Shown piece after piece: positions 30,471 to 64,000 of a stretch of 64,000 bases of DNA. Numbering within the stretch: position 1 is the stretch's first letter; every line of letters begins with the position of its first letter. The position numbers were made by a program, and so were the translations under genes. A model generated the notes under the pieces. That model saw only the letters and a program-made list of their open reading frames with translations. It searched no databases and was not told where the DNA came from. Location of the stretch: NCBI GenBank assembly GCA_029210625.1, contig JARGFU010000001.1:261806-325805 (forward strand), in the 5' to 3' direction. Origin of the DNA: Deltaproteobacteria bacterium (GTDB taxonomy: Bacteria > Myxococcota > Myxococcia > SLRQ01).

Positions 30471-30593
30471 GTCAGCTCTCGCAGCATAGCGCAGTGCGCC
30501 ACGGCAGGGCCCCTTTCGTTCCCGTCCGAGTGGGTGTACTTCCCGGCCCTCGAAGTCGCCGAACGACCCCTCCTCTTCCAAGGGAGCCTCGCC

Positions 30594-39611: not shown

Positions 39612-39649
39612 AGACCCGGCCGCGCGGTGGACGCGAGGCGCGAGGTGCG

Positions 39650-43439: not shown

Positions 43440-44855
43440 TCCGCTCTGGAGGTGGACGCCGAGGGAGAGCCAGGGCAGCGGGAGGATCTTGCCGCCCTCG
43501 CCGGTGTCCGCGTCCTGGGCCCAGACCCAGAGCAGGGCGAAGCCCAGGCGCAGGCGGAAGGCCTCGGGGCCCATCAGGCCCTTGCCGCTGCCCGGGCCGA
43601 TCTGCAGGCGCAAGCCCGTGGTGAGCATCGTGTCCCGAAACGGGGCGCGGGGCAGCAGCTCGGTCGCGAAGCTCCAGCGCTGCCCGACCCGCTGCTCGGC
43701 CGCGAAGAAGGGGAGCAGCTGCACGGGGATGCGCTCGATCACCCGGTCGTCCCCGGCGCAGACGTCCACGCCGCCCCCCACGCCCGGCGCGCCCAGCCCC
43801 CCCGCGCCGCAGGCGGAGCGGAAGGAGAAGGACTGGGGCAGGAGGTGGTGGTTGTCGAGGAGGTAGGCGCCCGCCACCAGGTGGGTGCGCCGGCGGGGGC
43901 CGAAGTGCTTGCCCACCGTCAGGGTGAAGAGGTTGAACTGCATGTTCGCGCCGCCCACGGCCACGAAGCCCGCGCCCGCGACCCCGTTGCCGAGGAAGGC
44001 CACGCCCCCGCCGCCGATGCCGGCGCCGAAGAGGTCGAGGAGGTCGTAGGCCAGCGCCACGCCCGGGAGCTTCGCCTGCTCGTCGAGGATCTTTACCTTC
44101 AGACCCAGATCGAAGAAGCCGAAGATCGCCAGCCCGCCGGCGCCGCCGGCGATGAGCCCGCCCGCCGGCACCGCCCCGCCGATGGCGCCGGGCACGGGGA
44201 AGCCGCCGAGCCAGAGCTGGAGCTGAACCCGATCCGAGAGGCCCATCGCCATCCGGAAGAGGAGGAGCTCGTCGTTGGAGACGAGCAGGTGGCCGGGGCG
44301 CAGGGTGAGCTCCGAGGGCGAGAGGAGGATCCGCTCGTCGCCGGTGTCGCGGGCGACAAAGCGGGTCCGGGCGTGACCGACCCGCAGGCCGAGCTGCCTT
44401 CCGAGCTCCCGGCCGGCGCGCTCGTGGAGCGCCGCCTCCTGGCCGGGGGGCGCGCCCGGCGCACCCCAGCGGCTGCGGCCGACCAGGGTGCCGTCGGGGA
44501 GCGCGAGGAGGCCCTCGACGATGAGGCGGCCGGAGCGCGAGTGATCCACCATCCGGCCGACGAGGTCCACGGTGTCGGAGCGCGAGCCGGTGAGGACCGA
44601 GCGCGCCTCCAGGATCCGGATCTCCAGCCGGAAGGCCGGCTCCCCTGCCTCGCTCGTGAGGCCGGCGGCCTCGGCGAGCGCCGGCCCGGCCGCCGCGGCG
44701 ATCGGCCCGGCCACCGGGCCCTCCCCGGTCGCCCGGACGTTGCGGATCCCGGCGTGGCGTCCCAGGGGGGCGACCCGCCCGCGCCCGGGGAGCGTGCCGC
44801 AGGCCGAGGCGAGCAGGAGCGCGAGGAGCAGGGAGCCTCTCGTCGGCGATCGCAT
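43434..44855 (-). CDS. lipoprotein / outer-membrane protein with a Gly-rich beta-barrel-like C-terminal half, hypothetical
   Basis: Lipobox LLLASAC. The C-terminal half is Gly/Ala-rich with an amphipathic beta-strand pattern. Last gene of a three-gene minus-strand operon. Confidence 0.45.
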   Translation of the reverse strand: MRSPTRGSLLLALLLASACGTLPGRGRVAPLGRHAGIRNVRATGEGPVAGPIAAAAGPALAEAAGLTSEAGEPAFRLEIRILEARSVLTGSRSDTVDLVGRMVDHSRSGRLIVEGLLALPDGTLVGRSRWGAPGAPPGQEAALHERAGRELGRQLGLRVGHARTRFVARDTGDERILLSPSELTLRPGHLLVSNDELLLFRMAMGLSDRVQLQLWLGGFPVPGAIGGAVPAGGLIAGGAGGLAIFGFFDLGLKVKILDEQAKLPGVALAYDLLDLFGAGIGGGGVAFLGNGVAGAGFVAVGGANMQFNLFTLTVGKHFGPRRRTHLVAGAYLLDNHHLLPQSFSFRSACGAGGLGAPGVGGGVDVCAGDDRVIERIPVQLLPFFAAEQRVGQRWSFATELLPRAPFRDTMLTTGLRLQIGPGSGKGLMGPEAFRLRLGFALLWVWAQDADTGEGGKILPLPWLSLGVHLQSGS

Positions 44856-47748: not shown

Positions 47749-48372
47749 ATGCTCGACGCCCACCTGCGGCACCTCGCCCTCCTCGCCCTCCCGGCGCTCC
47801 TCCTCGTCACCGCCTGCCCCCGGCGGGTGCCGATCCCCGACCCCACGCCGGCCACGGGCGAGTGGTACGAGACGCAGGCGGACGAGGGCTTCTCCTTCTC
47901 CATGCCCGATCCGCCCGAGGTGCAGCGCCAGAACGTCCCCACCGAGGCCGGGCCGCTGCCGATCGTGATGTACCTGCTGGCCGACGACGCCCGGGGCGCC
48001 GCCTACAACGTCACCAGCGCCCGCTACCCGGAGGGGTTCATGGACACCCGGGATCCCGCCGAGGTCCTGGCTGGCGCCCGGGACGGAGCCGCCTCCAACA
48101 TCTCGGGCGAGATCCTCGAGCAGCGCGACCTGCAGCTCTTCGCCCCCGACGGCTCCATCGCCCCGGGCCTCGAGCTGGTGATGCGCACGCCCCAGGAGAT
48201 GCTCTACCGGGGGCGGATCTTCGTGGTGGGCCCGCAGCTGATCCAGCTCTCCTACGTCACCACCGAGAAGGGCGGCTCGGAGGAGGCCTACCGGCACTTC
48301 GTCGAGTCCTTCATCCTGACCCCCTCGAGCCCCGCCGCGCCCTCGCCGGACGACGGGCCCACCGAGGAGTGA
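47749..48372 (+). CDS. lipoprotein, hypothetical
   Basis: Signal peptide plus lipobox LLLVTAC. No recognisable family. Confidence 0.45.
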   Translation: MLDAHLRHLALLALPALLLVTACPRRVPIPDPTPATGEWYETQADEGFSFSMPDPPEVQRQNVPTEAGPLPIVMYLLADDARGAAYNVTSARYPEGFMDTRDPAEVLAGARDGAASNISGEILEQRDLQLFAPDGSIAPGLELVMRTPQEMLYRGRIFVVGPQLIQLSYVTTEKGGSEEAYRHFVESFILTPSSPAAPSPDDGPTEE

Positions 48373-49649: not shown

Positions 49650-50116
49650 TCTCTCTCGACCGGCGCCTCCTGAAGCGTGCCTTCTTCCGGCTGGTCAGCG
49701 TCTACCCGCCCTACCTCGGGGCGGGCGTCCGGCTGACCCACGTCGCCGAGGACCTCCTCACCATGGAGGTCGAGATGAAGCTCACGCCCCTCAACCGCAA
49801 CTACGTCGGCACCCACTTCGGTGGCTCCCTCTACAGCATGTGCGATCCCTTCTTCATGCTGATCCTGATGGAGGCGCTCGGAGAGGGCTTCGTCGTCTGG
49901 GATCAGGAGGCGACCATCCGCTTCAAGAAGCCCGGGCGCGGCAAGGTGCGGGCCCGCTTCTCGGTGAGCCCGGCCGAGGTGGAGTCGATCCGGCACGACG
50001 CGATCAAGCACCGCAAGACCTCTCCGGTCTTCCGGACGAAGGTCACCGACGAGCAGGGTGAGGTCGTCGCCGAGATCGAGAAGACCCTCTACGTCCGGCA
50101 GCGCGAGGCGGCCTGA
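49646..50116 (+). CDS. DUF4442/YiiD_C-like hot-dog fold (thioesterase-like) protein
   Basis: Hot-dog fold-like motif NYVGTHFGGSLYSMCDPFFMLILMEALG. ATGA overlap with the MFS transporter gene suggests co-transcription. Confidence 0.55.
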   Translation: MISLDRRLLKRAFFRLVSVYPPYLGAGVRLTHVAEDLLTMEVEMKLTPLNRNYVGTHFGGSLYSMCDPFFMLILMEALGEGFVVWDQEATIRFKKPGRGKVRARFSVSPAEVESIRHDAIKHRKTSPVFRTKVTDEQGEVVAEIEKTLYVRQREAA

Positions 50117-50193
50117 AACGGCTCCTGTTTCCGGGGGGTTGAGCGCCCTGGGGTGGATCCCCGCGGTGTAGGCCCGGGTAGTCCGGTGTCGCA

Positions 50194-50209
50194 TGGCCCC
50201 GAGGCTGCG
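50194..50209 (+). promoter_or_regulatory. candidate sigma-54 (-24/-12) promoter element upstream of the giant adhesin gene
   Basis: TGGCCCCGAGGCTGCG fits the GG-N10-GC spacing and the TGGC...TGC core of sigma-54 promoters. It lies ~70 bp upstream of the ATG at 50280, and a sigma-54 activator (NtrC family) is encoded in the window. Spotted by eye only. Confidence 0.25.
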
Positions 50210-50279
50210 CGGGCGGCTATTCTTTGGGCTTTCCGACTGCGTTCATGCCGGACGCGGTCCGGGAGGCTGGGAGGATCGC

Positions 50280-53200
50280 ATGCAACGCTGGATCGTTGTC
50301 TGCTTCGTGGGCCTGGGCCTGATGACGGCCTGCAACTCGAACGTCGCCGTCGACAACCCCTACGATCCCGACGCCCCTCCGGCGTTGCAGGTCACCAGCC
50401 TGATCACCGGGCGGGTCAGCGCGGAGGCGGCCTTCGACCCCGCGAGCCTGACGATCACCGTCGAGGGGCTCACCCCCCGGGGCAGCCCCGTGCGCGACGT
50501 GGCGGTGGAGCTCGACGACACCACGACGCCCGTCTCCTTCTCGACCTTCCTGCCCGCCGGCACCTACCTCGTCCGCGCGGAGGTCCCCGGCTTCCGCGCC
50601 GACGAGCGCACCGGCGTGCTCGTGGCGACGGGCGAGGATCAGGACATCGGCGAGCTCTATCTCCTGGCCGGCCGAGGCACCCTGGCCGGGCGCGTGGTGA
50701 TCCCGGATCCAGCCGGTGATCGCCCCGCGCCCCTCGAGACCGAGGTCACCCTCCTGCGCCTCGGCTCCCCGGTGGCCACGCCCTCCGACACCTCCTGCAC
50801 CGAGCTCGCCGCCGAGGAGTCCGTCCGCGCCCGCCTCCGCGCGGACGGCACCTTCGAGGAGCGCAACCTCGCCGTCGGCCCCTTCGTGGTCATCGCCTCC
50901 CTCGACGGCTACCTGCCCGCGGTCGTCGCCCAGAGCGTCGAGGTCCTCACCGACGGGGTCACCGACGTGGGCACGCTGCAGCTCACCGACGGGGAGGGCA
51001 TCCTCACCCTCACCGCCCCGGCGAACCCCGACGCCGATCCGGCGGGCCTCGCCACCTCCGCCTCGACGATCACCGCCAACGTGGTCCTCCCGCCGGTCTA
51101 CAACGGCATGCAGCTCTCGCTGATGCCCGACTTCGGCGACGTGGCCGACTGGTCCACGCCGGCCACCTCCACCCTCTTCGACCTGACCGGCGCCAGCGAC
51201 GGGGAGCAGCAGCTCTTCCTGCGCTTCCGGGCGCCCACCTGCGATCTCTCTCCGACCTTCGTCGCCAGCATCATCCTCGACACCACGCCGCCGGTGGCCG
51301 CGGCGCCGGCGCCTGCGAGCGGCTCGAGCTGCTCCAACGACGCCCAGGTCACGATGGACCTCCCGGGCGAGGATCCCTGCGCGGCCGACCAGAGCTGCGC
51401 CGGCCTCTACCAGATGCGGGTCGTCTCCGACGGCACCCTCGATACCGAGACCTTCGTCGACTACCTCCCCCGCGACATCGTCGCCTTCCCCGGCGACGGC
51501 ACCCACGACATCACCCTCGAGCTGCGCGACGCGGCGGGCAACACCTCGGCGCCCACCACCAGCACGGTGACCATCAACTCGGTGGGACCCCAGCCCGGCG
51601 GCGCCATCCTGCGGATCGACGACGGCAGCGGCACGGTGCGCTCGCTCTCGGTCCTGCTCACCTTCGACGTCACCGGCGCCACCGGGGTCGAGGTCGGCAA
51701 CGCGGCGGGCCTCGACGGCAGCGCCTGGGTGGCGCTGCCCCCGAGCCAGCAGCTCTCCTGGCAGCTCGCCGCCGGCGCCGACGGCCTGCGCACGGTCGTC
51801 GCCCGCTTCCGGGACGACTGCGGCAACGTGACCCAGGAGTACCCGGTCGACGTGCTCCTCGATCGCTCGGGGATGATCGCCGGCGCGGCCCGCCTCGAGG
51901 CCGGCGCGGATCACAGCGGCACCGTGGTCTCCTTCTGGCTCTGGGACGCCAGCGCGGCGGGCGGCGCGGGCGACTACGTGGACACGGCCCTGACGGCCAC
52001 CACCTCCGTGAACGGCGCCTTCAGCCTCTCCGGGCTGGCGGCCGGCGACTACCGCCTGGTCTTCTCTCACCCGGGCTTCAGCCAGCGGGTGATGGACGGC
52101 CTCATCCTCACCGAGGGCGCGGTGCGCACCCTGGGCGAGGTGGTCCTCCAGCTGGCCCGCGGTGAGCTCGAGGGCTCCGCCACCCTCCTGGGCGAGGGCA
52201 GCCACGAGGGGATCCGCGTCCAGGCGGCGCCGGGCATCACCACCGTCACCGACTCGGCGGGCAGCTACCTCTTCACCGATCTCCCCGTCGGCGACTACTA
52301 CGTCTCGGCCACCGCCGACGACGCCTTCCAGGGCGCCGCCTCCCCCACCCCGGCCACCGTGCTCGAGGGTCAGCGCGTCACCGCCGACCCCCTCGTGCTC
52401 CAGCCGATCCCCGGCAGCATCGCCGGCACCGCCCTGCGCTCCGGCCAGACCACCCACGGCGGCATCGACGTCCTCCTCGAGGGCGCCACGGTGGGCGACA
52501 CGCCGGTGCAGGACAACACGGTCACCCTCGCCGACGGGACCTACTCCTTCCCCTCGCTCACCGCCGGCACCTACCGCCTCGTCTTCCAGACCGCCCAGTA
52601 CCAGGCCGCGACCGCCGAGGGCGTGGTCGTGCCGCCCAACACGCCGGTGACCGTCACCCCGGTCACCCTCGCCAAGGCCACCGGGGCCCTGCGGGTGGCG
52701 GTGGACATCTCCGACCGCAGCAACGAGTCGGGGGTGGCGATCATCCTCGAGCAGAGCGGCACCTCCGTGCTGACCCAGCTCTCCCCGCCCGACGGCATCG
52801 TCTACTTCGCCTCGGTCCCGGCCGACAGCTACACCCTCGTCGCCCGCCTCGACGGCTACGGGGAGGAGCTGATCACCCCGGTGGTGGTCTCGGCCAACAG
52901 CACGACCGACCTCACCACCACGCCCATCGTCCTCACCCCGCAGATCGGCGACGCCTTCCTGCAGACCCCCGCCGGGGCGGTCCTCGGCGCCGCGACCAAC
53001 CTCACCTCCATCGAGGTGGGCGGCTCCTTCCCCGGCGTGAACCAGGTGCGGATCTGCGAGAGCCCGAACATCCTCCTGGGCGGCGACCCCGACACCTTCT
53101 CCACCGGGAACTGCGCCTGGCGGGCCATCACCCAGCTCCCCGGGGACGCCTTCCAGCCCCTGCCCTTCACCTTCTCCCAGTCGCAGTGCCCCGACCCCGG

Positions 53201-56200
53201 CGATCCGGTGGCCATCTGCGACGGCCAGAAGGTCGTCTGGGTGAAGATGCAGGACACCACCTCCGGGCTCGTCTCCGAGTGGTTCCCCCTCGACATCGTC
53301 CTCGACCGGGTCGCCCCGCAGGGCAACATCGTCATCTCCCCCACGGCCAGCACCACCTCCGGGGATCTGGTCGTCGGCGACGGTGAGGCCTACACCGCCT
53401 CCCTCAACGTCTCGGCGCTGGTCGCGGCCCAGGAGGATCTCTCCGGCGTCGCCGCCGGCGGCGCGGTCGCCGGGGTGGTCAGCGGACGCATCTTCCGCAG
53501 CACCACCGACACCAACCCGGTGCTGGTGAGCCTCAAGGAGGGCCTCACCTCCGTGCCGGTGATCACCCTCACCCCGGGGGCCGACGGCGACCGGCAGCTC
53601 TACCTCGAGGTCTCCGACGCCGCGGGCAACCGCTCGGTCACCGATCTCACCACCGTGACCTGCCCGCCGGCGCGCACCCCCAGCCTGCCCACCGACTGCG
53701 ACGCCATCTTCGTCGATCGCACGCCGCCCCCCTCCCTGGCCTTCAGCATCGAGCCCACCTCCCCGGGCACCGACATGTCCCTGGGGGCGGCCTGGACCGC
53801 CACCACCACCGTCACCCTGGGGATCGACTCCACCATCACCGGCCTCGCGGAGGACGAGGCGGTCTCGGCGATCATCGCCAACGACTCGGGCTTCGTGGCC
53901 AGCCTGGCCATGCCCCTGGCGAACCCGGTCTCGCTGGTGGGCTGGAACCTCACCGTGGGAGACGGCACCAAGAACGTCTACATCCGCGTCCGGGACGCGG
54001 CCGGCAACCTCTCGGGCGTCTTCTCGGACAGCATCGGCCTGGACACCCTGGCCCCACAGATCCCGGTGCTCGACGAGGTCCCGCCGGTCACCGCCGACGC
54101 CTCACCGGCCCTCTCCTTCACCGGCGGCACCGGCGCCACCCGGCACTTCCTCCAGCTCTCGGACAGCGCGTCCTTCGACGGCTCCGGCCCCGGCGCGGTC
54201 TTCGTGGAGGTGGAGCTGACGGACTTCGACTACACCGCGATCGACGACGCCGCGGGCGCCGCCGCCTACCCGCTGGCCGACGGCCTCTACTGGTGGCGGG
54301 TGCAGGCCGCCGACGACGCGGACCTGCGCAGCCCCTTCACCCCGGCGCAGCGCTTCGAGGTCGACACGGTGGCCCCCGGGCCCACGACCCTGGACCTCGT
54401 CGACAGCCCGACCCGGGACACGACCCCGACCCTCACCTGGGCAGCGACCACCGACGCCCGGCTCTACCACCTCCAGATCTCCACGACCTCCGACTTCAGC
54501 GCGGGGATCCAGGTCGACCAGACCACCGCCCAGCTGAGCCTCACCTCCAGCACCCTGGGTGAGGGCACCTGGTACGCCCGGGTGCAGACCATCGACGCCG
54601 CGGGCAACGCGGACGCCGCCGGCTTCTCCAACACCGTCACCTTCGTGGTGGACACCACTGCCCCGGCCGACGCCATCCTCTCCGCCCCGGCGAACGCCTC
54701 GACCTGGAGCACCCAGCCGGTGGCCTTCACCTGGGCCTCGGTGGCGGACGCCGTCGCCTACCGCCTCGAGATCGCGCTCAACGCGGGCTTCACCGGCGCC
54801 ATCGTGGAGGCCGGGCTGACCACCACCGCCCGCTCGCTGGTCCTCGACGAGGGCGCCTACTGGGCGCGGGTGATCACCACCGACGCGGCCGGCAACCGCT
54901 CCCTGGGGACGACCTTCATCACCTTCACCGTGGACACGGTCGCGCCGGACGTCCCGACCCTCAACCGCCTGCCCAGCCTGATCTCCGAGCGCCAGCCGGT
55001 GCTCTCCTGGAGCGACGAGGCCGCCTCCGGCGCCGTGACCTACCTCGTGCAGGTGGACGGCGTGGACCGGCCGGTCTCCGGCACCACCACCTACACCGTG
55101 CCCCTGGCCGAAGCCCTGGCGGACGGCGTCCACACCTGGACGGTCGCCGCCCGGGACGCCGCCGGGAACACCAGCGCCCACGCCACCCTGCAGTCCTTCA
55201 CCGTGGACGCCACCGCGCCGGCCACGCCGGTGCTGGTGCCGGTGAACCCCGACCCCACCTCCCTCACCCAGCCCACCCTCGCCTTCGCGGCGGTGGGGGA
55301 CGCGGTCGAGTACGAGGTCGAGTGGCACGACAACAACCTCTTCACCGGGGGCACCGGGAGCAGCGCCCTGATCACCGGCACCTCCACCAAGCCGAGCGTC
55401 GCGCTGGGCAACGGCACCTGGCACTGGCACGTCCGGGCCCGGGACGCCTCGGGCAACTGGAGCGCCTTCTCCTCCGTGGACGACTTCGTGGTGGACACCA
55501 CGGCCCCGGCCGACCCGACCCTGCTGACCCCCGCCGCGGGGAGCTCGGTGACCTCGACCTCGGTCGACTTCACCTGGGCCGCGGTGGCCGACGCCGTCCG
55601 CTACCAGCTCGAGATCGCCTCCGACGCGGCCTTCACCTCGCCCCAGATCGAGTCCGGCCTGACCACCACCGCCCGCGCCGTCGTCCTCACCGATGGGAGC
55701 TGGTGGGCCCGCGTGCGCGCGATCGACGCCGCCGGCAACGTCTCCGCCGGCGCCGCCGACAACGCCTTCACCGTCGACACCACCGCGCCGGACGTGCCGA
55801 CCCTCACCCGCCTGGCCGACCTGATCTCCGAGACCCAGCCCGTGCTCGGCTGGAGCGACGAGGCCGCCAGCGGCGCCGCGGCCTACCTCCTGCAGATCGA
55901 CGGCGCCACCCGGGTGGTCTCCGGCGCGACCAGCTACACGGTCCCGCTGGCCGAGGCCCTCGCCGACGGCACCCACACCTGGACCGTCGCCGCCCGCGAC
56001 GCCGCCGGCAACGTGAGCGCCTTCGCCACGGCGCAGGCCTTCACCGTGGACGCGACCGCGCCGGGCGTGCCGGGCCTGGTGGCCGTCAGCCCCGATCCCT
56101 CCTCGAACACCCTGCCCACCCTCGCCGTGAAGCCGGTGAGCGACGCCGTCGAGTACGAGCTCGAGTGGCACGACAACAGCCTCTTCACCGGCGGCGTCGG

Positions 56201-59200
56201 CGGGAGCGACACCGTCGCGACGACCTCCACCCAGCCCTCGTCGGCCCTCGGCGGCGGCACCTGGTACTGGCGCGCCCGGGCCCGGGACGCCGTCGGCAAC
56301 TGGAGCGGCTGGTCCACCACCGGCAGCTTCGTGGTCGACGTCACGGCGCCCTCGGATCCGACCCTCCTCACGCCCGTCGCGGCGAGCAGCCTGGCCACCT
56401 CCTCGGTGGCCTTCAGCTGGTCCTCGGTGGCGGACGCGGTGGCCTACCGCCTGGAGATCGCCACCAACGCCGGCTTCACCGCCGCCCAGGTGGAGGCCAA
56501 CCAGACGACGACGGCCCGCTCGGTGGTCCTCACCGACGGAAACTGGTGGGCCCGGGTGCGGGCCATCGACGCCGCCGGCAACGTCTCCGCCGGGGCCTCG
56601 AGCACGGCCTTCACGGTGGACACCACGGCCCCCGCCGTGCCGACCCTCACCCGCCTGGCCAGCCTCATCAACGAGACCCAGCCGGTGCTCTCCTGGAGCA
56701 ACGAGGCCGCCTCCGGCGCCACCGCCTACCTCCTGCAGATCGACGGCGTCGACCGGGTCGTCACCGGCGCCACCTCCTACACCCTGCTCCTGGCCGAGGC
56801 CCTCGCCGACGGCAGCCACGCCTGGACCGTGGCCTCCCGCGACGCCGCGGGCAACGTGAGCGCCTACGCCACCGCCCAGGCCTTCACCGTCGACGCCACG
56901 GCGCCGGCGGTGCCGGTGCTGGTGGCCGTCGCCCCGGATCCCTCCCGCGTCACCCAGCCCACCCTCGCCCTCCAGCCGGTGAACGACGCGGTCCAGTACG
57001 AGGTCCAGTGGCACGACAACAACCTCTTCACCGGCGGTGTGGGCGGGACGAACACGATCACCATCCCCACCACCCAGCCGGCCCCGGCCCTGGGCAACGG
57101 CACCTGGTACTGGCGCGCGCGGGCGCGGGACCAGGCGGGCAACTGGAGCGCCTTCTCCTCCTCCAGCAGCTTCGTGGTCGACATCACCGCCCCGGCCGAC
57201 CCCTCCCTGCTGACCCCCGCCGACGGCAGCGCGGTGACCTCCAACTCGGTCGCCTTCAGCTGGTCCTCGGTGGCCGACGCCGCCACCTATCAGCTCGAGA
57301 TCTCCACCGACGCGGCCTTCACCGCGCCGACGCGCGAGAGCGGCCTGACGGCCACCTCCCGCTCGGTCGTCCTGGGGGACGGCCCCTGGTGGGCCCGGGT
57401 GCGCGCGGTCGACGCTGCGGGCAACCTCTCCGCCGGCGCGGCGGACAACGCCTTCACCGTCGACACGACCCCGCCCGACGTGCCCACGCCGGTGGCCCTG
57501 ACCTCGCCGACCACCGACGCGACGCCGACCTTCAGCTGGAGTGACGAGAGCGCCAGCGGCGCGGTCGGCTATCGCCTCGACCTCGACGGCACGGTGACCT
57601 CCGTGGCCTCGACCTCCCACACCCCGGCCTCGAACCTGGCCGACGGTCCCCACAGCTTCGCCGTGGCCGCGGTGGACGCCGCGGGCAACCGGAGCGCCTA
57701 CTCCTCGGCCCAGGTCTTCGAGGTCGACGCCACCCTCCCGGCGGTGCCGGTCCTGACCCCGGTGAGCCCCGACCCCCGGAACACCACCACCGTCGCCCTC
57801 GCCTGGTCGGCGGTCGCCGACGCCCTGAGCTACACCGTCGAGTGGGACACCGACGTGGGCTTCACCAACGGCGCCGGCGGGCAGGCCACGGTCTCCTCGC
57901 CCGGCCACAGCGTCGGCCCCCTGGCCGAGGGCACCTGGTACTGGCACGTCCGCGCCACCGACGACGCCACCAACCAGAGCGCCTTCTCCAGCCCCGACGC
58001 CTTCGTCATCGATCTGAGCGCGCCCATCAACCCGGCGCCCTCCACCCCCGCCGACGCCAGCTACTCCACCAGCTCGACCGTGGCCTTCACCTGGAGCAGC
58101 GTCGCCGACGCGGCCGCCTACCTCCTGGATCGCTCGACCTCCCCGACCTTCGCCACCTACGACCGCAGCGAGGGCACGAGCACCAGCCAGCTGGTCACCC
58201 TGCCCGACGGCATCTGGTACTGGCGGGTCCTGGCGCGGGACGCGGCGGGCAACGTCTCGCCGACCGCCACGGCCACCGTGCGCAGCGTCGAGGTGGACAC
58301 CGTGGCCCCGGCCGCCCCGGTGCTGACCTCCGTGACCACCCCCACCAACGACACCACGCCGACCCTCGCCTGGTCCGCCGTGACCGGGGCCGCGAGCTAC
58401 GTGGTCACCCTCGACGGCTCGACGACCACCGTCACCTCCCCCACCCTCACCCACACTCCGTCGGCCCTCGGGGACGGCAACCACACCTGGACCGTCGCCG
58501 CCCGCGACGCCGCGGGCAACCTGGGACCGGCGGCCCCCACCGAGGTCTTCGTGGTGGACGCCACCGCGCCGGCGGCGCCCACCCTCATCGCCTACTTCCC
58601 GGATCCCACCACCGACAACACCCCCACGGTGCAGTGGAACACCGTCCCCGACGCGGACACCTACCGGGTGAGCTGGAGCGACGACGGCTTCCTCACCTCC
58701 TCCTTCGCGACCACCTCCGACGTGAGCCTCGAGATCGGGCCGCTGACCGGCAGCCCGGCGACCACCTGGTCGTGGCGGGTGGAGAGCCTGGACGCCCTCG
58801 GCAACGCCTCGGCGCCCTCGTCGCCGGACAGCTTCCTGGTCGACACCGTCACCCCCACCGCGCCCTCGCTGATCGCGCCGGCCGACGGCGCCACCGCGAC
58901 CGGCGTCACCGTCTCCTTCTCCTGGTCCTCGGTGGGCGACGCCGCGAGCTACCGCCTGCAGGTGGGCTCGGACGCCACCCTGGCGACCATCGTCCACGAT
59001 CTCGCGGGCCTCTCCTCCACGTCGACCGATCTGACCCTCACCGACGCCGTCTGGTACTGGCGGGTGCTGGCCACCGACGCCGCGGGCAACCAGACCGCGC
59101 CGGCCTCGGCGACGATCTGGAGCGTCACCGTCGACGCCAACGCCCCGTCGACCCCGACCCTCGCGGCGATCGCCACGCCCACCAACGATGGCACGCCCAC

Positions 59201-62200
59201 CTTCACCTGGAGCGACGAGTCGGGCAGCGGCGCCACCCAGTACCTCCTGCGCATCGACGCGGTGGACACCACCCTGGCCGCCCTCACCTACACCCCGGCC
59301 TCGAACCTGGCCGAGGGCTCGCACACCATCTCGGTCGCCGCCCGGGACGGCGCCGGCAACACCAGCGCCTACAGCGCCTCCCAGACCATCATCGTCGACC
59401 TCAGCGCCCCGAGCGCGCCCGCCAACCCGCTCCCGGCCGGCGGCGCGGCCGACACCGACGGCTCGGTCGACTTCTCCTGGGATGCCTCCACCGACGCGCT
59501 GACCGCGGTGAGCTACCGGCTGCAGGTGGCGCAGGCCAGCGACTTCCTCACCCTCCTGGTGAACGACACGCCGGCGACCGAGAGCGCCACCGTGCTACTG
59601 GCCGACGGCACCTACCGGTGGCGGGTGCGGGCCGAGGACGCGGCGGGCAACGTCTCCGCCTGGGTCTCGGCGGCCAGCGGCCAGAGCCTGACGATCGACA
59701 CGACCGCTCCGACCGCCCCCGACCTGATCCCCGTGGGCGCCACCGTCAGCGCCTCGCCTACCCTGCGCTGGTACTCCCAGGCCGCCTCGGGCGCGACCCT
59801 CTACTCCGTCGAGGTCGACGACGACTCCCTCTTCGGCAGCCCGGACGCGACGGGCAGCACCAGCGGCACCAGCTTCGCCACCACCCTGGGCGACGGCACC
59901 TGGTACTGGCGAGTGCGGGCCCAGGACGCCCACGGGAACTCGAGCGCCTGGTCCTCCACCGACACCTTCGCGCTCGACAGCACCCCGCCGGGCCCGCCCA
60001 CCAACACCAGCCCGGCCGACGGCAGCTCGGGCAACGCCTCGGCGGTCACCTTCTCCTGGACCGCGCCGGCCGGCGGCGCCTCGAGCTATCGGCTGGAGAT
60101 CGCCTACGACTCCAACTTCACCGCCCTGGCCTGGCAGGCCACGACGCTGGACCCCACCGTCTCGGTGACGATCTCCTTCCCCGACGGCACCTACCACTGG
60201 CGGGTCCTCGCCCTCGACGCCGTGGGCAACGAGAGCACCCCGGCGCCGGGCGCCACCGGCGCGAGCTTCACCGTGGACACCACGGCGCCCGACCGGCCGA
60301 CCGTCACCACCACCCCGGGCTGGGTCGGCCTCGCCGACAGCAGCTACACCCTGGGCTGGAGCGACGAGTCGGACAGCGGGGCGGCGACCTACCAGTATCA
60401 GGTCTCCAGCAGCTCGAGCTTCGCCACCCTGGAGACGAGCGGCACCGTCACCTCGCCCTCGACCAGCGTGACGATCAGCACGATCCCGGCGGACGGCACC
60501 TGGTACTGGCGCGTGCGCGCCCTCGACACCCTGGGGAACCCGAGCGTCGCGACCGCCGGCTGGACCAGCGCCACGAGCTTCGGCGTGGACCGGGTGAACC
60601 CGACGGCGCCGGGCTTCGTGGCCCCGCCCGACGAGCCGAACCCGGGCTACATCATCGCCGCCAGCACGGTGACCCCCGAGTGGACCGCCTCCACCGACAC
60701 CAACCTCTCCCACTACCAGCTGCAGATCAGCCAGGCCTCGGACTTCTCCAACCAGGTCGTGGTCGACACGACGGTGACCAACACCCTCTCGAACCAGACC
60801 CTGGGCGACGGCGTCTACTACTGGCGCGTCCGCGCGGTGGACCTGGCCGGGAACGTCTCCGACGACTGGAGCACCGCCGCGAACTCCCGCAGCTTCACCG
60901 TCGACACCACCCAGCCCTCGGCGACCTCGCTCTCGCCCCTCACCAGCCCGACCTCCGACGCCCGCCCCGACCTGGCCTGGTCGGCGGTCAGCGACGCCGA
61001 GATCTACCGGATCGAGTGGTCCCAGGATCCCACCTTCGGGACGGTGCCCATCACCCTCATCCGCAGCGAGGATCCGGCGCCCCGGGCCTACCTCCAGGAC
61101 AGCGACTACGCCGTGCCCGGCGCTCTCACCGACGGCACCTGGTACGCCCGGGTGATCGTGCAGGACGCGGCGGGCCTCCAGAGCGCCCCCTCCGCCTCGC
61201 TCCAGGTCGTGATCGACACCAGCGCCCCGAGCGCTCCGTCCAGCTGCGCCCTGACCACCCTCACCTCCTACGCCAACGCCCTGGCCGATCCGACCCCGGA
61301 GTTCACCTGGGAGGTGGTCGCCGGCGCGGCCTCCTACACTCTCGAGATCGAGCGCTGGGTCACCGGCGCCTGGCAGGCCGACTCCACCATCACCGGCATC
61401 GACGGCGCCGCCACCTTCGGCGTGGTCTTCTCCCTGCCCTCGGCCAGCAGCCTCACCGACGGTGACCTCTACCGCTTCAGCGTCGAGGCGGTGGACTCGG
61501 CGGGTAACGTCTCGGCGCCGGTCTACTGCGTGACCGACGGCCTGGGCGACACCAGCCTGCGCTCGGATCAGTCCGGGCCCATCTCGGGGGTCTCGGGCCT
61601 GGTCTTCGCCGGCGCCAACCCCACCAGCGGCGTCACCGCCACCGTGCAGTGGACCGCCGAGGAGGACGTCACCAACTCCGGCGAGTACGGCTACGACGTC
61701 TCTCTGCTGGCTCAGGACCAGGTCACCGTCATCGCCTCGGCCACGATCCCCTGGGCGAACGGCTTCACCCCCGGGCCGCGCAGCCAGAACTTCGCCGTCC
61801 CCCTCGACGGCACCTACTACGCCAAGGTCGTGGCCTGGGACGCCGCCCTCAACCGCTCGGCGACCTCCACCACCGTCACCCCCCTGGTGATCGACAACAG
61901 CCCCCCCACCGGCACGGTCACGATCACCAACGGTGAGCCCACCAACGCCACCGCCCTCTCCCTGGCCCTCACCTACTCCGGTGACGTCACCCAGATGCGG
62001 ATCGAGGAGACCGTCGCCCTCGACTGCTCGGTGGGAACCTACGAGAGCGTCGCCGCCACCAAGAACTTCGCCATCGCCGGCGTGGGTATGGTGAGCGTCG
62101 GCGTCTGCTTCAAGGACGCCGCCGGCAACACCTACGCCGCCTTCGACACCATCGAGGTCGACCGGACGAGCCCCGACGGAGTCTTCGTCATCTACGCCGA

Positions 62201-64000
62201 GGGCAACCCCACCTACACGATCCGCCGGACCATCCAGCTCGAGATCACGGTCACCTCGACGGACGTCGAGAAGATGGCCGTCAGCCAGACCGGCGCCCTC
62301 CTGTGCAACTCGGCCGTCTACGAGCCCTTCAGCCCCTCGAAGTCCCTGACCCTCACCGGCGGCGACGGTGAGAAGACGATCTCGCTCTGCCTGAAGGACT
62401 ACGCCGGGAACTACACGGCCGCGCCGATCACCGAGACCATCACCCTGGACCTGACTCCCCCGGCCGGAAGCCTGGTCATCCAGGAGACCGGCCGCCAGGA
62501 CTACGCCTGGAGCCAGAGCGTCGACCTGCTCATCTCCGCCTCGGCCGACGTCGCCGCCTACTACGTCGTCAACGAGCAGACCCCCGACTGCGGCGCCCTG
62601 GCCGCCGGCTGGACCGCCGGCAACCCGAACGGCACCCTCCCCTGGACCCTGGGCGGCGAGGACCAGCAGGTGAACTCCGTTGCGATCTGCTTCCAGGACA
62701 ACGCCGGCAACGCGGCGCTGGCCACCGACTTCATCGTCGTCGATCTCCAGCCGCCCCAGGGGTGGATCTGGCTCGACGACGGCGCGCAGTACACCACCGA
62801 CGACGTCGTCGCCATCACCTCCGACGTGCCCTCGGGCGCCACTCAGATGGCCTTCACCGAGGTCGATCCCAACTGCGACATCGACCCCCTCGGCTGGACT
62901 GCCTTCGTCCGCGAGTCCTCCTACGTCCTCGCCAGCCCGGAGGGGAGCTTCCGGATCTACGCCTGCTTCCGGGACGAGTCGGGGCAGACCTCCGAGACCT
63001 ACGCCGACATCATCTACGACCGGACGCCGCCCTCCCTGACCACCTTCTCGCTGCAGGGGCGGACGGGCATCGACTGCTGGGACACCTCCGGCACCGACTG
63101 CAACGCGAACAGCTGCACCTGCGACTCGACCCGGACGAAGTTCTCTGACGTGGTCTTCACCCTCGTCTCCTTCGACGCCTTCTTCTACGGGATCGAGCCG
63201 GGCGACGTGGACTGCGCCAGCGTGGGCCAGATCCCCTACAACGCGGCGAACTTCCCCCAGAGCTACTTCCTCCCCGGCGCCGACGGTGAGCAGACCCTCA
63301 CCCTCTGCATCTGGGACGAGGCGGGGAACAGCACCAAGGCGACCCAGGCCATCACCCTGGACACCATCCCCCCCGATCCGGCGAGCGGCATCACCCTCAC
63401 CCCGGGCAACCACCTGATGCAGGTCGACTGGACCGACTCGGTCACCGCCTCCGACGTGGATCACTACGAGATCCGCTGGAACCAGCAGACCACCGGGATG
63501 CAGGGCATCTCCACCATCGCCAAGGAGGTGGAGACGGTGACGATCCAGCCCGCGGGCCCCTCCCTGGCGAACTGCGAGGAGATGTGGATCGACGTGCTGG
63601 CGGTGGACGCCGTCGGCAACGTCGGCTGGCCCTGGCTGGAGTTCGGCCGGCCGCTCTACGCGCCGGTCGATCTCGAGGAGAACCGGGTGCGGGCCTCCTT
63701 CCGCCGCCTGCAGGCCGACTGGGATCTGGTCGCCTCGGCCGACCTCTACCGCTTCTACTACGCCAACGGCGCCCCCCCGAACCTGGCCAGCACCGACTAC
63801 GCCCAGCTCCCCTCGGCCAACGTGGTGATCGAGGACGGCGAGCCCCTCCCGGGCAACCCCTCCGTGACCGGCAACCTCCAGGAGTCGGTGACCTACGTCA
63901 TGGGCCTGTCGGCCCGGGACAGCGTCACCTTCAGCGAGCACGCGATCGAGTGCTGGTCCGACTTCGGCGCGCTGGCCTCCGACACCACCTTCGGCCTCCA
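50280..64000 (+). CDS. giant surface lipoprotein/adhesin (>4,570 aa, 3' end beyond window): lipoprotein signal peptide, CarboxypepD_reg-like domains, ~30 tandem Ig-like ~90-aa domains, then Cys-pair Ig-like domains and an FN3-like domain
   Basis: A strong Shine-Dalgarno (GGAGGATCGC) precedes ATG 50280. Lipobox LGLMTAC. CarboxypepD_reg-like beta-sandwich signatures (GSYLFTDLPVGDYYVSA, GTYSFPSLTAGTYRLVF, DGIVYFASVPADSYTLVA). Tens of repeats share FTVDTTAPxxPTL...W......Y.L.I......F.......T......L.DGTWYWRVRA.DAAGN.S. Distal repeats carry paired Cys (C....VC.KDAAGN). An FN3-like block ends the visible part (LMQVDWTDSVTASDVDHYEIRWNQ). The single frame stays open for 13.7 kb while every other frame is junk. 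Confidence 0.85.
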   Translation, partial: MQRWIVVCFVGLGLMTACNSNVAVDNPYDPDAPPALQVTSLITGRVSAEAAFDPASLTITVEGLTPRGSPVRDVAVELDDTTTPVSFSTFLPAGTYLVRAEVPGFRADERTGVLVATGEDQDIGELYLLAGRGTLAGRVVIPDPAGDRPAPLETEVTLLRLGSPVATPSDTSCTELAAEESVRARLRADGTFEERNLAVGPFVVIASLDGYLPAVVAQSVEVLTDGVTDVGTLQLTDGEGILTLTAPANPDADPAGLATSASTITANVVLPPVYNGMQLSLMPDFGDVADWSTPATSTLFDLTGASDGEQQLFLRFRAPTCDLSPTFVASIILDTTPPVAAAPAPASGSSCSNDAQVTMDLPGEDPCAADQSCAGLYQMRVVSDGTLDTETFVDYLPRDIVAFPGDGTHDITLELRDAAGNTSAPTTSTVTINSVGPQPGGAILRIDDGSGTVRSLSVLLTFDVTGATGVEVGNAAGLDGSAWVALPPSQQLSWQLAAGADGLRTVVARFRDDCGNVTQEYPVDVLLDRSGMIAGAARLEAGADHSGTVVSFWLWDASAAGGAGDYVDTALTATTSVNGAFSLSGLAAGDYRLVFSHPGFSQRVMDGLILTEGAVRTLGEVVLQLARGELEGSATLLGEGSHEGIRVQAAPGITTVTDSAGSYLFTDLPVGDYYVSATADDAFQGAASPTPATVLEGQRVTADPLVLQPIPGSIAGTALRSGQTTHGGIDVLLEGATVGDTPVQDNTVTLADGTYSFPSLTAGTYRLVFQTAQYQAATAEGVVVPPNTPVTVTPVTLAKATGALRVAVDISDRSNESGVAIILEQSGTSVLTQLSPPDGIVYFASVPADSYTLVARLDGYGEELITPVVVSANSTTDLTTTPIVLTPQIGDAFLQTPAGAVLGAATNLTSIEVGGSFPGVNQVRICESPNILLGGDPDTFSTGNCAWRAITQLPGDAFQPLPFTFSQSQCPDPGDPVAICDGQKVVWVKMQDTTSGLVSEWFPLDIVLDRVAPQGNIVISPTASTTSGDLVVGDGEAYTASLNVSALVAAQEDLSGVAAGGAVAGVVSGRIFRSTTDTNPVLVSLKEGLTSVPVITLTPGADGDRQLYLEVSDAAGNRSVTDLTTVTCPPARTPSLPTDCDAIFVDRTPPPSLAFSIEPTSPGTDMSLGAAWTATTTVTLGIDSTITGLAEDEAVSAIIANDSGFVASLAMPLANPVSLVGWNLTVGDGTKNVYIRVRDAAGNLSGVFSDSIGLDTLAPQIPVLDEVPPVTADASPALSFTGGTGATRHFLQLSDSASFDGSGPGAVFVEVELTDFDYTAIDDAAGAAAYPLADGLYWWRVQAADDADLRSPFTPAQRFEVDTVAPGPTTLDLVDSPTRDTTPTLTWAATTDARLYHLQISTTSDFSAGIQVDQTTAQLSLTSSTLGEGTWYARVQTIDAAGNADAAGFSNTVTFVVDTTAPADAILSAPANASTWSTQPVAFTWASVADAVAYRLEIALNAGFTGAIVEAGLTTTARSLVLDEGAYWARVITTDAAGNRSLGTTFITFTVDTVAPDVPTLNRLPSLISERQPVLSWSDEAASGAVTYLVQVDGVDRPVSGTTTYTVPLAEALADGVHTWTVAARDAAGNTSAHATLQSFTVDATAPATPVLVPVNPDPTSLTQPTLAFAAVGDAVEYEVEWHDNNLFTGGTGSSALITGTSTKPSVALGNGTWHWHVRARDASGNWSAFSSVDDFVVDTTAPADPTLLTPAAGSSVTSTSVDFTWAAVADAVRYQLEIASDAAFTSPQIESGLTTTARAVVLTDGSWWARVRAIDAAGNVSAGAADNAFTVDTTAPDVPTLTRLADLISETQPVLGWSDEAASGAAAYLLQIDGATRVVSGATSYTVPLAEALADGTHTWTVAARDAAGNVSAFATAQAFTVDATAPGVPGLVAVSPDPSSNTLPTLAVKPVSDAVEYELEWHDNSLFTGGVGGSDTVATTSTQPSSALGGGTWYWRARARDAVGNWSGWSTTGSFVVDVTAPSDPTLLTPVAASSLATSSVAFSWSSVADAVAYRLEIATNAGFTAAQVEANQTTTARSVVLTDGNWWARVRAIDAAGNVSAGASSTAFTVDTTAPAVPTLTRLASLINETQPVLSWSNEAASGATAYLLQIDGVDRVVTGATSYTLLLAEALADGSHAWTVASRDAAGNVSAYATAQAFTVDATAPAVPVLVAVAPDPSRVTQPTLALQPVNDAVQYEVQWHDNNLFTGGVGGTNTITIPTTQPAPALGNGTWYWRARARDQAGNWSAFSSSSSFVVDITAPADPSLLTPADGSAVTSNSVAFSWSSVADAATYQLEISTDAAFTAPTRESGLTATSRSVVLGDGPWWARVRAVDAAGNLSAGAADNAFTVDTTPPDVPTPVALTSPTTDATPTFSWSDESASGAVGYRLDLDGTVTSVASTSHTPASNLADGPHSFAVAAVDAAGNRSAYSSAQVFEVDATLPAVPVLTPVSPDPRNTTTVALAWSAVADALSYTVEWDTDVGFTNGAGGQATVSSPGHSVGPLAEGTWYWHVRATDDATNQSAFSSPDAFVIDLSAPINPAPSTPADASYSTSSTVAFTWSSVADAAAYLLDRSTSPTFATYDRSEGTSTSQLVTLPDGIWYWRVLARDAAGNVSPTATATVRSVEVDTVAPAAPVLTSVTTPTNDTTPTLAWSAVTGAASYVVTLDGSTTTVTSPTLTHTPSALGDGNHTWTVAARDAAGNLGPAAPTEVFVVDATAPAAPTLIAYFPDPTTDNTPTVQWNTVPDADTYRVSWSDDGFLTSSFATTSDVSLEIGPLTGSPATTWSWRVESLDALGNASAPSSPDSFLVDTVTPTAPSLIAPADGATATGVTVSFSWSSVGDAASYRLQVGSDATLATIVHDLAGLSSTSTDLTLTDAVWYWRVLATDAAGNQTAPASATIWSVTVDANAPSTPTLAAIATPTNDGTPTFTWSDESGSGATQYLLRIDAVDTTLAALTYTPASNLAEGSHTISVAARDGAGNTSAYSASQTIIVDLSAPSAPANPLPAGGAADTDGSVDFSWDASTDALTAVSYRLQVAQASDFLTLLVNDTPATESATVLLADGTYRWRVRAEDAAGNVSAWVSAASGQSLTIDTTAPTAPDLIPVGATVSASPTLRWYSQAASGATLYSVEVDDDSLFGSPDATGSTSGTSFATTLGDGTWYWRVRAQDAHGNSSAWSSTDTFALDSTPPGPPTNTSPADGSSGNASAVTFSWTAPAGGASSYRLEIAYDSNFTALAWQATTLDPTVSVTISFPDGTYHWRVLALDAVGNESTPAPGATGASFTVDTTAPDRPTVTTTPGWVGLADSSYTLGWSDESDSGAATYQYQVSSSSSFATLETSGTVTSPSTSVTISTIPADGTWYWRVRALDTLGNPSVATAGWTSATSFGVDRVNPTAPGFVAPPDEPNPGYIIAASTVTPEWTASTDTNLSHYQLQISQASDFSNQVVVDTTVTNTLSNQTLGDGVYYWRVRAVDLAGNVSDDWSTAANSRSFTVDTTQPSATSLSPLTSPTSDARPDLAWSAVSDAEIYRIEWSQDPTFGTVPITLIRSEDPAPRAYLQDSDYAVPGALTDGTWYARVIVQDAAGLQSAPSASLQVVIDTSAPSAPSSCALTTLTSYANALADPTPEFTWEVVAGAASYTLEIERWVTGAWQADSTITGIDGAATFGVVFSLPSASSLTDGDLYRFSVEAVDSAGNVSAPVYCVTDGLGDTSLRSDQSGPISGVSGLVFAGANPTSGVTATVQWTAEEDVTNSGEYGYDVSLLAQDQVTVIASATIPWANGFTPGPRSQNFAVPLDGTYYAKVVAWDAALNRSATSTTVTPLVIDNSPPTGTVTITNGEPTNATALSLALTYSGDVTQMRIEETVALDCSVGTYESVAATKNFAIAGVGMVSVGVCFKDAAGNTYAAFDTIEVDRTSPDGVFVIYAEGNPTYTIRRTIQLEITVTSTDVEKMAVSQTGALLCNSAVYEPFSPSKSLTLTGGDGEKTISLCLKDYAGNYTAAPITETITLDLTPPAGSLVIQETGRQDYAWSQSVDLLISASADVAAYYVVNEQTPDCGALAAGWTAGNPNGTLPWTLGGEDQQVNSVAICFQDNAGNAALATDFIVVDLQPPQGWIWLDDGAQYTTDDVVAITSDVPSGATQMAFTEVDPNCDIDPLGWTAFVRESSYVLASPEGSFRIYACFRDESGQTSETYADIIYDRTPPSLTTFSLQGRTGIDCWDTSGTDCNANSCTCDSTRTKFSDVVFTLVSFDAFFYGIEPGDVDCASVGQIPYNAANFPQSYFLPGADGEQTLTLCIWDEAGNSTKATQAITLDTIPPDPASGITLTPGNHLMQVDWTDSVTASDVDHYEIRWNQQTTGMQGISTIAKEVETVTIQPAGPSLANCEEMWIDVLAVDAVGNVGWPWLEFGRPLYAPVDLEENRVRASFRRLQADWDLVASADLYRFYYANGAPPNLASTDYAQLPSANVVIEDGEPLPGNPSVTGNLQESVTYVMGLSARDSVTFSEHAIECWSDFGALASDTTFGL
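54640..57560 (+). repeat. ~840-bp tandem super-repeat (three Ig-like domains per unit), at least 3.5 copies with high nucleotide identity, inside the giant adhesin gene
   Basis: The string ttcaccgtggacgccaccgcgccgg recurs at ~55198, ~56040 and ~56881. ttcaccgtcgacaccaccgcgccggacgtgccgaccctcacccgcctgg recurs at ~55765 and ~56610. The encoded protein blocks (FTVDTTAPDVPTLTRLADLISETQPVLGWSDEAASGA...) are nearly identical between copies. Confidence 0.6.

Follow-up and report, generated by a model that had tools for sequence, protein, structure and literature searches.

A 5,476-residue repeat-built lipoprotein of an uncultured myxococcote, probably a lipid-anchored surface stalk with a C-terminal FG-GAP head

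Background

What kind of protein is encoded by a single bacterial open reading frame (ORF) of at least 13.7 kb, and where such a protein would work, are the questions raised by the gene that starts at position 50280 of a 64,000-nucleotide stretch of DNA from Deltaproteobacteria bacterium (assembly GCA_029210625.1, contig JARGFU010000001.1, positions 261,806 to 325,805). This whole stretch is called the window here and all DNA positions are given in its numbering. An earlier annotation made from the letters alone, called here the original prediction, had described the gene as an incomplete giant lipoprotein adhesin built from Ig-like repeats and had placed a possible sigma-54 promoter upstream of it. 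Among the huge proteins of bacteria, giants that are extracellular or sit on the surface form a class already recognised (PMC11573180). The analysis indicated that the full product is a cell-envelope lipoprotein of 5,476 residues, which is best read as a lipid-anchored surface stalk presenting a binding head, most likely a long-reach adhesin; a probability of about 0.7 was given to this reading. The proposed promoter was found to be indistinguishable from chance.

Reading frame, start and full-length product

The frame was analysed by translation and by base composition at the codon positions. It is uninterrupted from 50280 to 64000 on the forward strand, with 4,573 codons and no stop, as had been predicted. 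The GC content is 68-76% along the window and 73% for the genome, and long open frames on several frames are common in the window, the other frames being spurious. The GC content at codon positions 1, 2 and 3 was 0.63, 0.56 and 0.98 across the 13.7 kb, and because the third position reaches 0.98 (GC3) the giant frame is taken as truly coding and not as an ORF left open by chance in DNA so rich in GC. Going upstream, the first stop codon in frame is at 50169-50171. The sequence GGGAGG occurs twice before the ATG at 50280, at 50261-50266 and at 50269-50274, the second copy standing 5 nt ahead of the ATG in accordance with the strong Shine-Dalgarno sequence of the original prediction. The start was placed at 50280 because the N-terminus is conserved across the homologues. 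A second in-frame ATG, which overlaps the proposed sigma-54 motif, is present at 50193; it was rejected as the start, having no Shine-Dalgarno sequence and adding 29 residues ahead of a signal peptide that otherwise matches the family.

The full-length product was found by an exhaustive HMMER search with residues 3753-4573 as query against 1.84 billion cluster representatives. The top match (P0069, 5,476 aa) aligned by its residues 3753-4573 to the query end to end, and its residues 1-4573 are identical to the window product. This protein is NCBI MDF1561662.1, 'MAG: Ig-like domain-containing protein [Deltaproteobacteria bacterium]', where MAG denotes a metagenome-assembled genome; it is a singleton at 90% identity and is encoded on a 530-kb contig. 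The giant gene continues for 903 codons past the end of the window, and the search for its 3' end beyond the window, which the original prediction had proposed, revealed that the full product ends in two FG-GAP blocks. The incomplete giant lipoprotein gene of tandem beta-sandwich repeats that had been predicted is thereby completed. The protein was already public under its generic name, and its finding is in itself ordinary.

The composition of the window product is extreme, with 17 Lys among 4,573 residues (0.4%) and with Ala, Thr, Ser and Val together making up 45%; it is also acidic (499 Asp and Glu vs 169 Lys and Arg). No exact DNA repeat of at least 40 nt was found inside the giant ORF, and for this reason a misassembly or a collapse driven by repeats is unlikely. 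When the C-terminal 923 aa and the N-terminal 1,254 aa were used as queries, word-indexed protein searches gave distant matches alone, at up to 39% identity; since all of these matches were roughly 0.5-1.75 times the query length, the giant relatives seem to have been missed by such searches. The last 403 aa of the window product gave no match in the genome-contig or metagenome-contig scans. The coordinates of the gene and of its parts are summarized in Table 1.

Table 1. Features of the giant gene and its upstream region, in window positions
Feature	Position	Strand	Evidence
Proposed sigma-54 -24/-12-like string TGGCCCCGAGGCTGCG	50194..50209	+	no better than chance
Shine-Dalgarno GGAGG	50270..50274	+	5-nt spacer to ATG 50280; direct sequence reading
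Giant lipoprotein gene, 5' part, 83.5% (4,573/5,476 codons)	50280..64000	+	no stop, GC3 0.98, identity to MDF1561662.1
Predicted lipoprotein signal peptide (signal peptidase II type), aa 1-17, and putative lipid-acceptor Cys18	50280..50333	+	lipobox pattern match
NPYDPD motif, aa 26-31	50355..50372	+	family-conserved
Two CarboxypepD_reg-like (transthyretin-like) domains, ~aa 36-237	50385..50990	+	PF13620 36.5 bits, 2 stretches in aa 1-333; boundaries by reading
Three Ig-like modules, ~aa 238-528, two ending ...D.AGN...	50991..51863	+	Big_13 at aa 406-432; weak module-HMM matches at 334-432 and 437-525
Four CarboxypepD_reg domains, ~aa 529-897	51864..52970	+	PF13620 102.8 bits, 4 stretches (aa 554-905)
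Three Ig-like modules, ~aa 898-1254, first Cys-rich	52971..54041	+	weak Big_13 and own-HMM matches; Cys positions
26 contiguous FN3-fold modules (Pfam Big_13), 87-107 aa each, aa 1255-3752	54042..61535	+	module HMM, alignment, models
Array core, four tandem A-B-C super-units of 843, 843, 843 and 831 bp	54651..58010	+	module spacing, identities
Divergent module, aa 3753-3871	61536..61892	+	partial module-HMM match 3770-3870, independent E-value 1e-6; no Pfam match
Five Ig-like modules with conserved Cys pair, aa 3872-4360	61893..63359	+	own HMM 100-109 bits each; no Pfam match
Two FN3-like modules, aa 4361-4573; frame runs on to FG-GAP region	63360..64000	+	fn3 18.5 bits; module HMM 1.2e-4

Domain architecture and fold

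The domain content was analysed with profile hidden Markov models (HMMs). On the whole window product the Pfam scan gave 345 bits for Big_13 (PF19077), with 9 stretches passing alone against a gathering threshold of 27, and 90 bits in 4 stretches for CarboxypepD_reg (PF13620, gathering threshold 32.3), while the NCBIfam model of the OmpL47-type domain scored 126 bits. The CarbopepD_reg_2, SdrD_B and SpaA models also match the four-domain CarboxypepD_reg stretch. By these profile matches, and by those of the C-terminal region described below, the protein belongs to the Pfam domain families Big_13, CarboxypepD_reg and FG-GAP. The window holds a total of about 46 small beta-sandwich domains, namely 6 CarboxypepD_reg-like, about 12 Ig-like and about 28 FN3-like.

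The architecture is largely in accordance with what had been read from the letters. The HMM run that had been suggested placed PF13620 above threshold in two N-terminal stretches, in agreement with the CarboxypepD_reg-like domains claimed; the second family of Ig-like modules with a Cys pair is present as five modules; and the claimed FN3-like domain corresponds to the two modules at the end of the window, for which the sole Pfam fn3 (PF00041) match stays below the cut-off (18.5 vs 25 bits). As for the main Ig-like module, the array itself is there, but the figure of about 30 copies has to be replaced by 26 contiguous full-length modules plus a few divergent ones.

All 26 modules match the HMM built from them end to end or nearly so, with independent E-values of 5e-13 to 1e-39. 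The 26-module profile was compared with the PDB and matched the FN3 domains of titin (9e-25) and chitinase A1 (1e-8). An AlphaFold2 model of one module, made with the other 25 as alignment, had a mean predicted local distance difference test score (pLDDT) of 96.9, and Foldseek placed this model next to FN3 domains and the BIg domains of SiiE, with template modelling (TM) scores of 0.7-0.8. Because of the PDB profile matches together with the Foldseek result, the main 'Ig-like' modules are assigned, as modelled, to the FN3 fold, though they are filed under Big_13. For the Cys-pair module the AlphaFold2 model had a pLDDT of 92.6, and Foldseek returned generic PKD/FN3-like sandwiches (TM 0.55-0.69) with no close solved relative. 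The alignment with relatives indicated that a widespread module whose end reads ...GDG.KTV.V.F.D.AGN has a Trp and an Arg/Lys where this module has its Cys pair. S-layer-homology (SLH) proteins contain distant relatives of the Cys-pair module.

Within the FN3 array the module spacings of 96, 94 and 91 aa recur, and three module types follow each other in a strict A-B-C order, the cores of the same type being 53-83% identical and those of different types about 30-40%. At the DNA level the first three super-units (U1-U3) are 81-82% identical, and all other pairs of units are 74-77% identical, with the identity falling outward. This order and this pattern of unit identities are as expected of tandem duplication followed by divergence; the array is therefore read from its sequence as having expanded through duplication of a three-module unit of 843 bp. 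The super-repeat was measured by script. Tandem Repeats Finder reported nothing on the array, its 500-bp period limit being below the real period of 843 bp.

The region beyond the window (aa 4574-5476) gave 160.6 bits for FG-GAP (PF01839) in 6 stretches against a threshold of 22.1, and 59 bits for FG-GAP_3. The phmmer search with these C-terminal 903 aa found the propellers of integrin alpha-V, alpha-IIb and alpha-5 at 1.6e-11 and weaker, and loops of the DxDxDG type, for example DLNRDGFAE and DVDGDGYAE, were read on many of the blades. The region is read as two blocks, each of which appears to be a seven-bladed propeller of the integrin-alpha kind. A small domain between the two blocks has an SprB-repeat match of 25.3 bits, below the cut-off of 28.

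Two further FG-GAP genes stand next to each other 8-11 kb upstream of the giant gene, at 39217-41388 (+) and 41389-42456 (+). The product of the former consists of 723 aa of FG-GAP_3 repeats, and that of the latter is 355 aa long with FG-GAP, UnbV_ASPIC and thioredoxin-like domains.

Lipoprotein N-terminus and termini signals

The N-terminus carries Arg3, the hydrophobic segment WIVVCFVGLGLM and then the lipobox L-M-T-A-C18, where MQRWIVVCFVGLGLMTA followed by C fits the PROSITE-type lipoprotein pattern used as a regular expression. The layout, in which a positively charged n-region and a hydrophobic h-region come before a lipobox whose Cys falls inside the first ~35 residues, agrees with the rules for lipoproteins, and the lipobox of the original prediction was thus recovered at Cys18. 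It is conserved across dozens of homologues, an equivalent signal peptide and lipobox being present in 37 of the 149 top homologues and at no fewer than 25 genome loci. Residue +2 after the putative lipid-acceptor Cys18 is Asn and residue +7 is Val. In Myxococcus xanthus, Lys at +2 marks inner-membrane lipoproteins, and some lipoproteins are sorted to the extracellular matrix, for which Ala at +7 is needed in the case of FibA (PMC3222651).

The lipobox is followed by the motif C-x6-8-N-P-[YF]-D-P-[DE]-[TA]-P-x3-Q, which here spans aa 18-39 (50331-50396). It is common to the window protein and at least 36 other giants (P0071-P0200, L009-L126). The N, P and D of its NP[YF]DP core are invariant in 37/37 homologues, and the core starts 7-8 residues past the Cys in 35 of the 37. 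No mention of this motif was found in the literature. It may be a sorting or tether signal, or it may simply be the start of the first domain.

At the other end, the protein terminates in ...SPDGRITVRGTVGP (...RITVRGTVGP), which has no hydrophobic tail. The Pfam and NCBIfam scans of the window product and of the C-terminal 903 aa contained no domain for the type IX secretion system (T9SS), no PEP-CTERM, MYXO-CTERM or LPXTG signal, and no RTX, HemolysinCabind or beta-barrel family; a PorU-like NCBIfam match reached 15 bits vs a cut-off of 420. The C-terminal sorting or anchor signal that the original prediction had suggested looking for was hence absent from the scans of the last 903 aa. Because no other anchor or secretion family appeared in the scans, the predicted N-terminal lipid is the sole anchor in evidence.

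A family of giant lipoproteins in Myxococcota

At E<=1e-3 the HMMER search yielded 2,294 cluster representatives, of which 319 reached E<=1e-30. Lengths of 3,000-7,500 aa are frequent among the 2,294, and many of the giant relatives are 30-37% identical to the query in the Cys-pair region. The combination of signal peptide, lipobox and NP[YF]DP motif was found in 37 of the top 149 homologues, and of the 70 proteins that start with Met and reach 2,500 aa or more, 35 carry the lipobox-NP[YF]DP N-terminus. Family members measure 2.5-7.5 thousand residues. The named protein homologues are each called 'hypothetical protein' and come from 'Deltaproteobacteria' MAGs.

A degenerate DNA pattern for the motif was also scanned over one genome per species, which gave at least 120 matches, 95 of the 120 listed being attributed to chance. 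At least 25 of the loci among the matches listed have a signal peptide and a lipobox 5-9 residues upstream of the motif with a long ORF downstream, and every named source of the family among these matches is Myxococcota, Myxococcales or a 'Deltaproteobacteria' MAG. The closest relative in the same set is locus L009 of a Myxococcales MAG, which is colinear with the window gene and 42.7% identical over 2,222 aa; it has no synteny upstream, the neighbouring gene on that side being a different one. A stricter DNA pattern for close relatives gave no match in metagenomes, and no literature on the giant lipoprotein family was found.

The homologues that were read have the same N-terminal order of parts and differ in their C-terminal regions, the FG-GAP head being shared with P0101 only. 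Two giants of Myxococcota MAGs, both deposited as 'hypothetical protein', illustrate the relation. MBM4280127.1 (5,604 aa) and NOZ85769.1 (4,698 aa) resemble the window protein in the signal peptide, the lipobox, the NP[YF]DP[DE]xP motif and the first CarboxypepD_reg-like domain, and like it they contain arrays of the Cys-pair Ig-like module, 30-37% identical. The window protein differs from them by its unusually long FN3-type array with the three-module super-repeat and by its C-terminal region. By these sequence likenesses it is a member of a large unnamed family of Myxococcota giant lipoproteins, which is so far confined to uncultured Myxococcota and 'Deltaproteobacteria' MAGs. The analysis adds this placement, a full domain map for one of the larger bacterial lipoproteins, and evidence for the growth of an FN3 array by three-module duplication.

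Two or three paralogues occur per MAG among the matches listed, namely L016, L042 and L108 in one of Myxococcota, L013 and L106 in a second MAG, and L014 and L089 in a third.

A wider proposal, which must be regarded as doubtful, is that the family forms an undescribed and Myxococcota-specific class of lipid-anchored 'stalk and head' surface giants, in which the element C-x6-8-NP[YF]DP[DE]xP-x3-Q would act as a surface sorting or tethering signal in the manner of the lipoprotein export signal of Bacteroidota, and interchangeable heads would set the target of each paralogue (prey, polymer or kin). Should the motif prove to be a surface-sorting signal, it would bear on how diderms outside Bacteroidota and spirochaetes display very large lipoproteins on their surface. 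Further work might be rewarding only on the conserved motif behind the lipobox and on the differing heads.

Proposed role and alternative explanations

The product would be exported by Sec, cleaved by signal peptidase II and lipidated on Cys18. In the most likely arrangement it would be anchored in the outer membrane, the polypeptide lying outside the cell, and the chain of about 46 domains would, if extended, form a stalk of the order of 150-200 nm (estimated at about 3.5-4 nm per domain) with the distal FG-GAP head as the probable ligand-binding part. A modular adhesin or receptor made up of an anchor, a stalk and an exchangeable binding head would be expected to show C-terminal regions that vary while anchor and stalk are conserved, and for this reason the protein is read as one. 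A role in adhesion of the kind known from gliding, social bacteria is suggested by the architecture, the source being an uncultured MAG.

Several points weigh against the surface adhesin. A lipoprotein of about 550 kDa has the outer membrane to cross, and no dedicated exporter adjoins the gene in the window. Position -3 of the lipobox is occupied by Met, where Leu is the commonest residue; the rules on Lys at +2 and Ala at +7 come from M. xanthus, which belongs to a different lineage; and with Val at +7 the matrix signal is not present. The count of seven blades comes from reading of the sequence and not from a structure model, and FG-GAP propellers occur also in enzymes and non-adhesive proteins, so that the head is no proof of adhesion. 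The source organism is known only as an uncultured MAG.

The location on the cell surface was weighed against a position facing the periplasm, on either the inner or the outer membrane, where the lipid-anchored protein would serve as an envelope scaffold. A lipobox by itself leaves surface exposure undecided, no gene for an outer-membrane translocator adjoins the giant gene in the window, and 16 of 37 family members carry an acidic residue (Asp or Glu) at +2, Asp at this position being a Lol-avoidance signal in Escherichia coli. The scaffold is nevertheless unlikely, since some 46 domains and 5,476 aa would far exceed the width of the periplasm; moreover, combinations of FN3, Ig, CarboxypepD_reg and FG-GAP domains are typical of extracellular proteins, the conservation of the Cys pairs points to disulfides that would stabilise a protein so exposed, and the +2 residue of the window protein is neither Lys nor Asp. 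That the protein is shed or cleaved from its anchor to build a matrix or an S-layer-like coat is improbable: the +7 residue is Val, whereas FibA depends on Ala at that place to reach the matrix (PMC3222651), the Pfam and NCBIfam scans found no SLH or self-assembly domain, and a single distal propeller head would favour ligand recognition over a lattice. These points outweigh the sorting of some M. xanthus lipoproteins to the extracellular matrix (PMC3222651), the distant relatives of the Cys-pair module in SLH proteins, and the highly repetitive and acidic nature of the chain, which would suit a matrix component.

An artefact of assembly or annotation, be it a chimera, a collapsed repeat or a chance ORF in GC-rich DNA, might be suspected from the MAG source, the repetitive sequence and the commonness of long spurious ORFs on other frames. 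It is highly improbable in view of the GC3 of 0.98 kept over 13.7 kb of the giant frame, the recognisable domains in every segment, the lack of any exact repeat of 40 nt or more with super-units just 75-82% identical in DNA, and the colinear homologues of 3-7.5 thousand residues in dozens of independent assemblies. A lipid-anchored surface stalk with a distal binding head is thus the preferred reading.

Of 6 homologue loci, 2 have a CsgG/DUF5683 (FlgO-like) gene as the immediate neighbour of the giant gene, at 2922-3986 (+) of L003 and at 2580-3869 (-) of L006. In the window, the gene at 20885-23704 (+), 27 kb upstream of the giant gene, encodes 939 aa with an N-terminus like FlgO/CsgG/TolB_N and a TPR repeat, and tblastn aligned it to the L006 protein at 2.5e-16. 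This gene, the sole one of its kind in the window, may be an export partner; it is not claimed as part of the system.

Comparison with known systems

In its working the window protein resembles the Lig lipoproteins and the giant RTX adhesins, and it is a member of neither group. Leptospira LigA and LigB, and the OmpL47-type lipoproteins, share with it the lipobox anchor and the tandem array of Ig-like domains, in accordance with the score of the OmpL47-type model. Lig proteins are surface-exposed lipoprotein adhesins of a diderm. They contain 12-13 Big_2 domains in about 1,200-1,900 aa, whereas the window protein, with about 46 domains, reaches about three times their length; its domains are Big_13/FN3-like and CarboxypepD_reg with FG-GAP propellers, and the Pfam scan gave no Big_2 match. 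The giant RTX adhesins of the type I secretion system (T1SS), such as SiiE, LapA, MpIBP and BapA, likewise hold a ligand-binding region off the cell on Ig-like stalks of several thousand residues, and the BIg domains of SiiE are among the best structural matches of the modules studied here. These adhesins are secreted C-terminus first, with RTX repeats, a C-terminal signal and an N-terminal plug, whereas the window protein has a lipobox and showed no RTX or T1SS feature in the Pfam or NCBIfam scans.

The C-terminus of the window protein resembles the integrin alpha propeller in sequence (160.6 bits for FG-GAP; 1.6e-11 in the phmmer search) and in its DxDxDG-type loops. Unlike integrin alpha, it would carry two tandem propellers at the C-terminus, and it has no beta-subunit partner, transmembrane segment or thigh and calf domains. 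The SprB gliding adhesins of Bacteroidota are also giant repetitive surface proteins, and the sub-threshold SprB-repeat match has been mentioned above. SprB is no lipoprotein; it is exported through the T9SS, for which it carries a sorting domain at its C-terminus. No T9SS C-terminal domain was found in the window protein, which is not a cargo of this kind.

The upstream region and the proposed sigma-54 promoter

The original prediction had pointed to TGGCCCCGAGGCTGCG at 50194-50209 as the core of a sigma-54 promoter and to an NtrC-family activator encoded at 15850-17244. The string is there, with GG and GC 10 nt apart, and so is the activator gene, on the minus strand; the promoter assignment itself and the link between the two were not supported. 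The activator-type protein has receiver, Sigma54_activat and HTH_8 domains. Its gene overlaps by 4 nt the end of the gene for a HAMP-HisKA-HATPase kinase at 17241-18737 (-), and the pair is an ordinary two-component operon without link to the giant gene, from which it is 33 kb away.

Transcription of the giant gene from this site under an enhancer-binding protein such as the NtrC-type one is quite unlikely. The proposal draws on the GG and GC doublets at the right 10-nt spacing with TGGC present, on the place of the site inside an intergenic region of 163 bp, at a plausible distance from the ATG (about 60 nt once the transcription start is allowed for), on the lack of any sigma-70-like site in the intergenic region, and on the activator encoded in the window; by rough arithmetic the chance of so good a site in this one region is about 4%. 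The background of the window is far less favourable. Where the genome is 73% GC, a GG-N10-GC match says next to nothing. Of the 1,923 GG-N10-GC sites counted over both strands, 31 equal or surpass the proposed one by weighted consensus, and TGGC-N8-TGC occurs 13 times against 10.3 expected, a number reached by 22 of 100 shuffles. When compared with the consensus TGGCAC-N5-TTGCW, the site has mismatches at -22, -15 and -11 (TGGCCC; CTGCG). The activator gene lies directly downstream of its own HAMP-HisKA kinase gene, and no inverted repeat fit for activator binding stands out upstream of the giant gene.

Promoter conservation among close relatives was examined in one of them, L009. The 10-mer TGTAGGCCCG occurs at 50170-50179 of the window and also in L009, on the reverse strand about 90 nt upstream of the start, and in both it precedes by 17-18 nt a string of the form TGGC-N8-NNGC (TGTAGGCCCG-N17-TGGCCCCGAGGCTGCG in the window; TGTAGGCCCG-N18-TGGCTTGGCCGCCGCG at a comparable place in L009). 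This likeness favours the promoter, but the flanking genes differ, the -12 region of L009 (CCGCG) is still further from the consensus, and the overall alignment is not significant, the 170-nt upstream alignment being equalled or beaten by 84 of 500 shuffles. Apart from L009, no comparable site was present upstream of the other 29 of 30 family loci. Seven loci with 30-45% GC upstream, where a real site would stand out, have zero GG-N10-GC in 200 nt.

The Rfam scan of the leader region gave no match. A weak terminator-like hairpin, partly coincident with the proposed -12 element, was seen at 50203-50218 (6 pairs, then ATTCTTTGGG, with a T-run to 50228). Transcription of the DUF4442 gene upstream, whose stop codon is at 50114-50116, could terminate here; 0.4 such sites were expected and one was seen.

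Other genes in the window

PADLOC gave no defence-system match. Two ORFs with strong coding signal, at 43434-44855 (-) and 47749-48372 (+), encode 473 and 207 aa respectively and have no Pfam or NCBIfam match. The gene at 28047-31232 (-) encodes about 1,060 aa with an adenylate/guanylate cyclase catalytic domain and a CHAT (caspase-like) domain.

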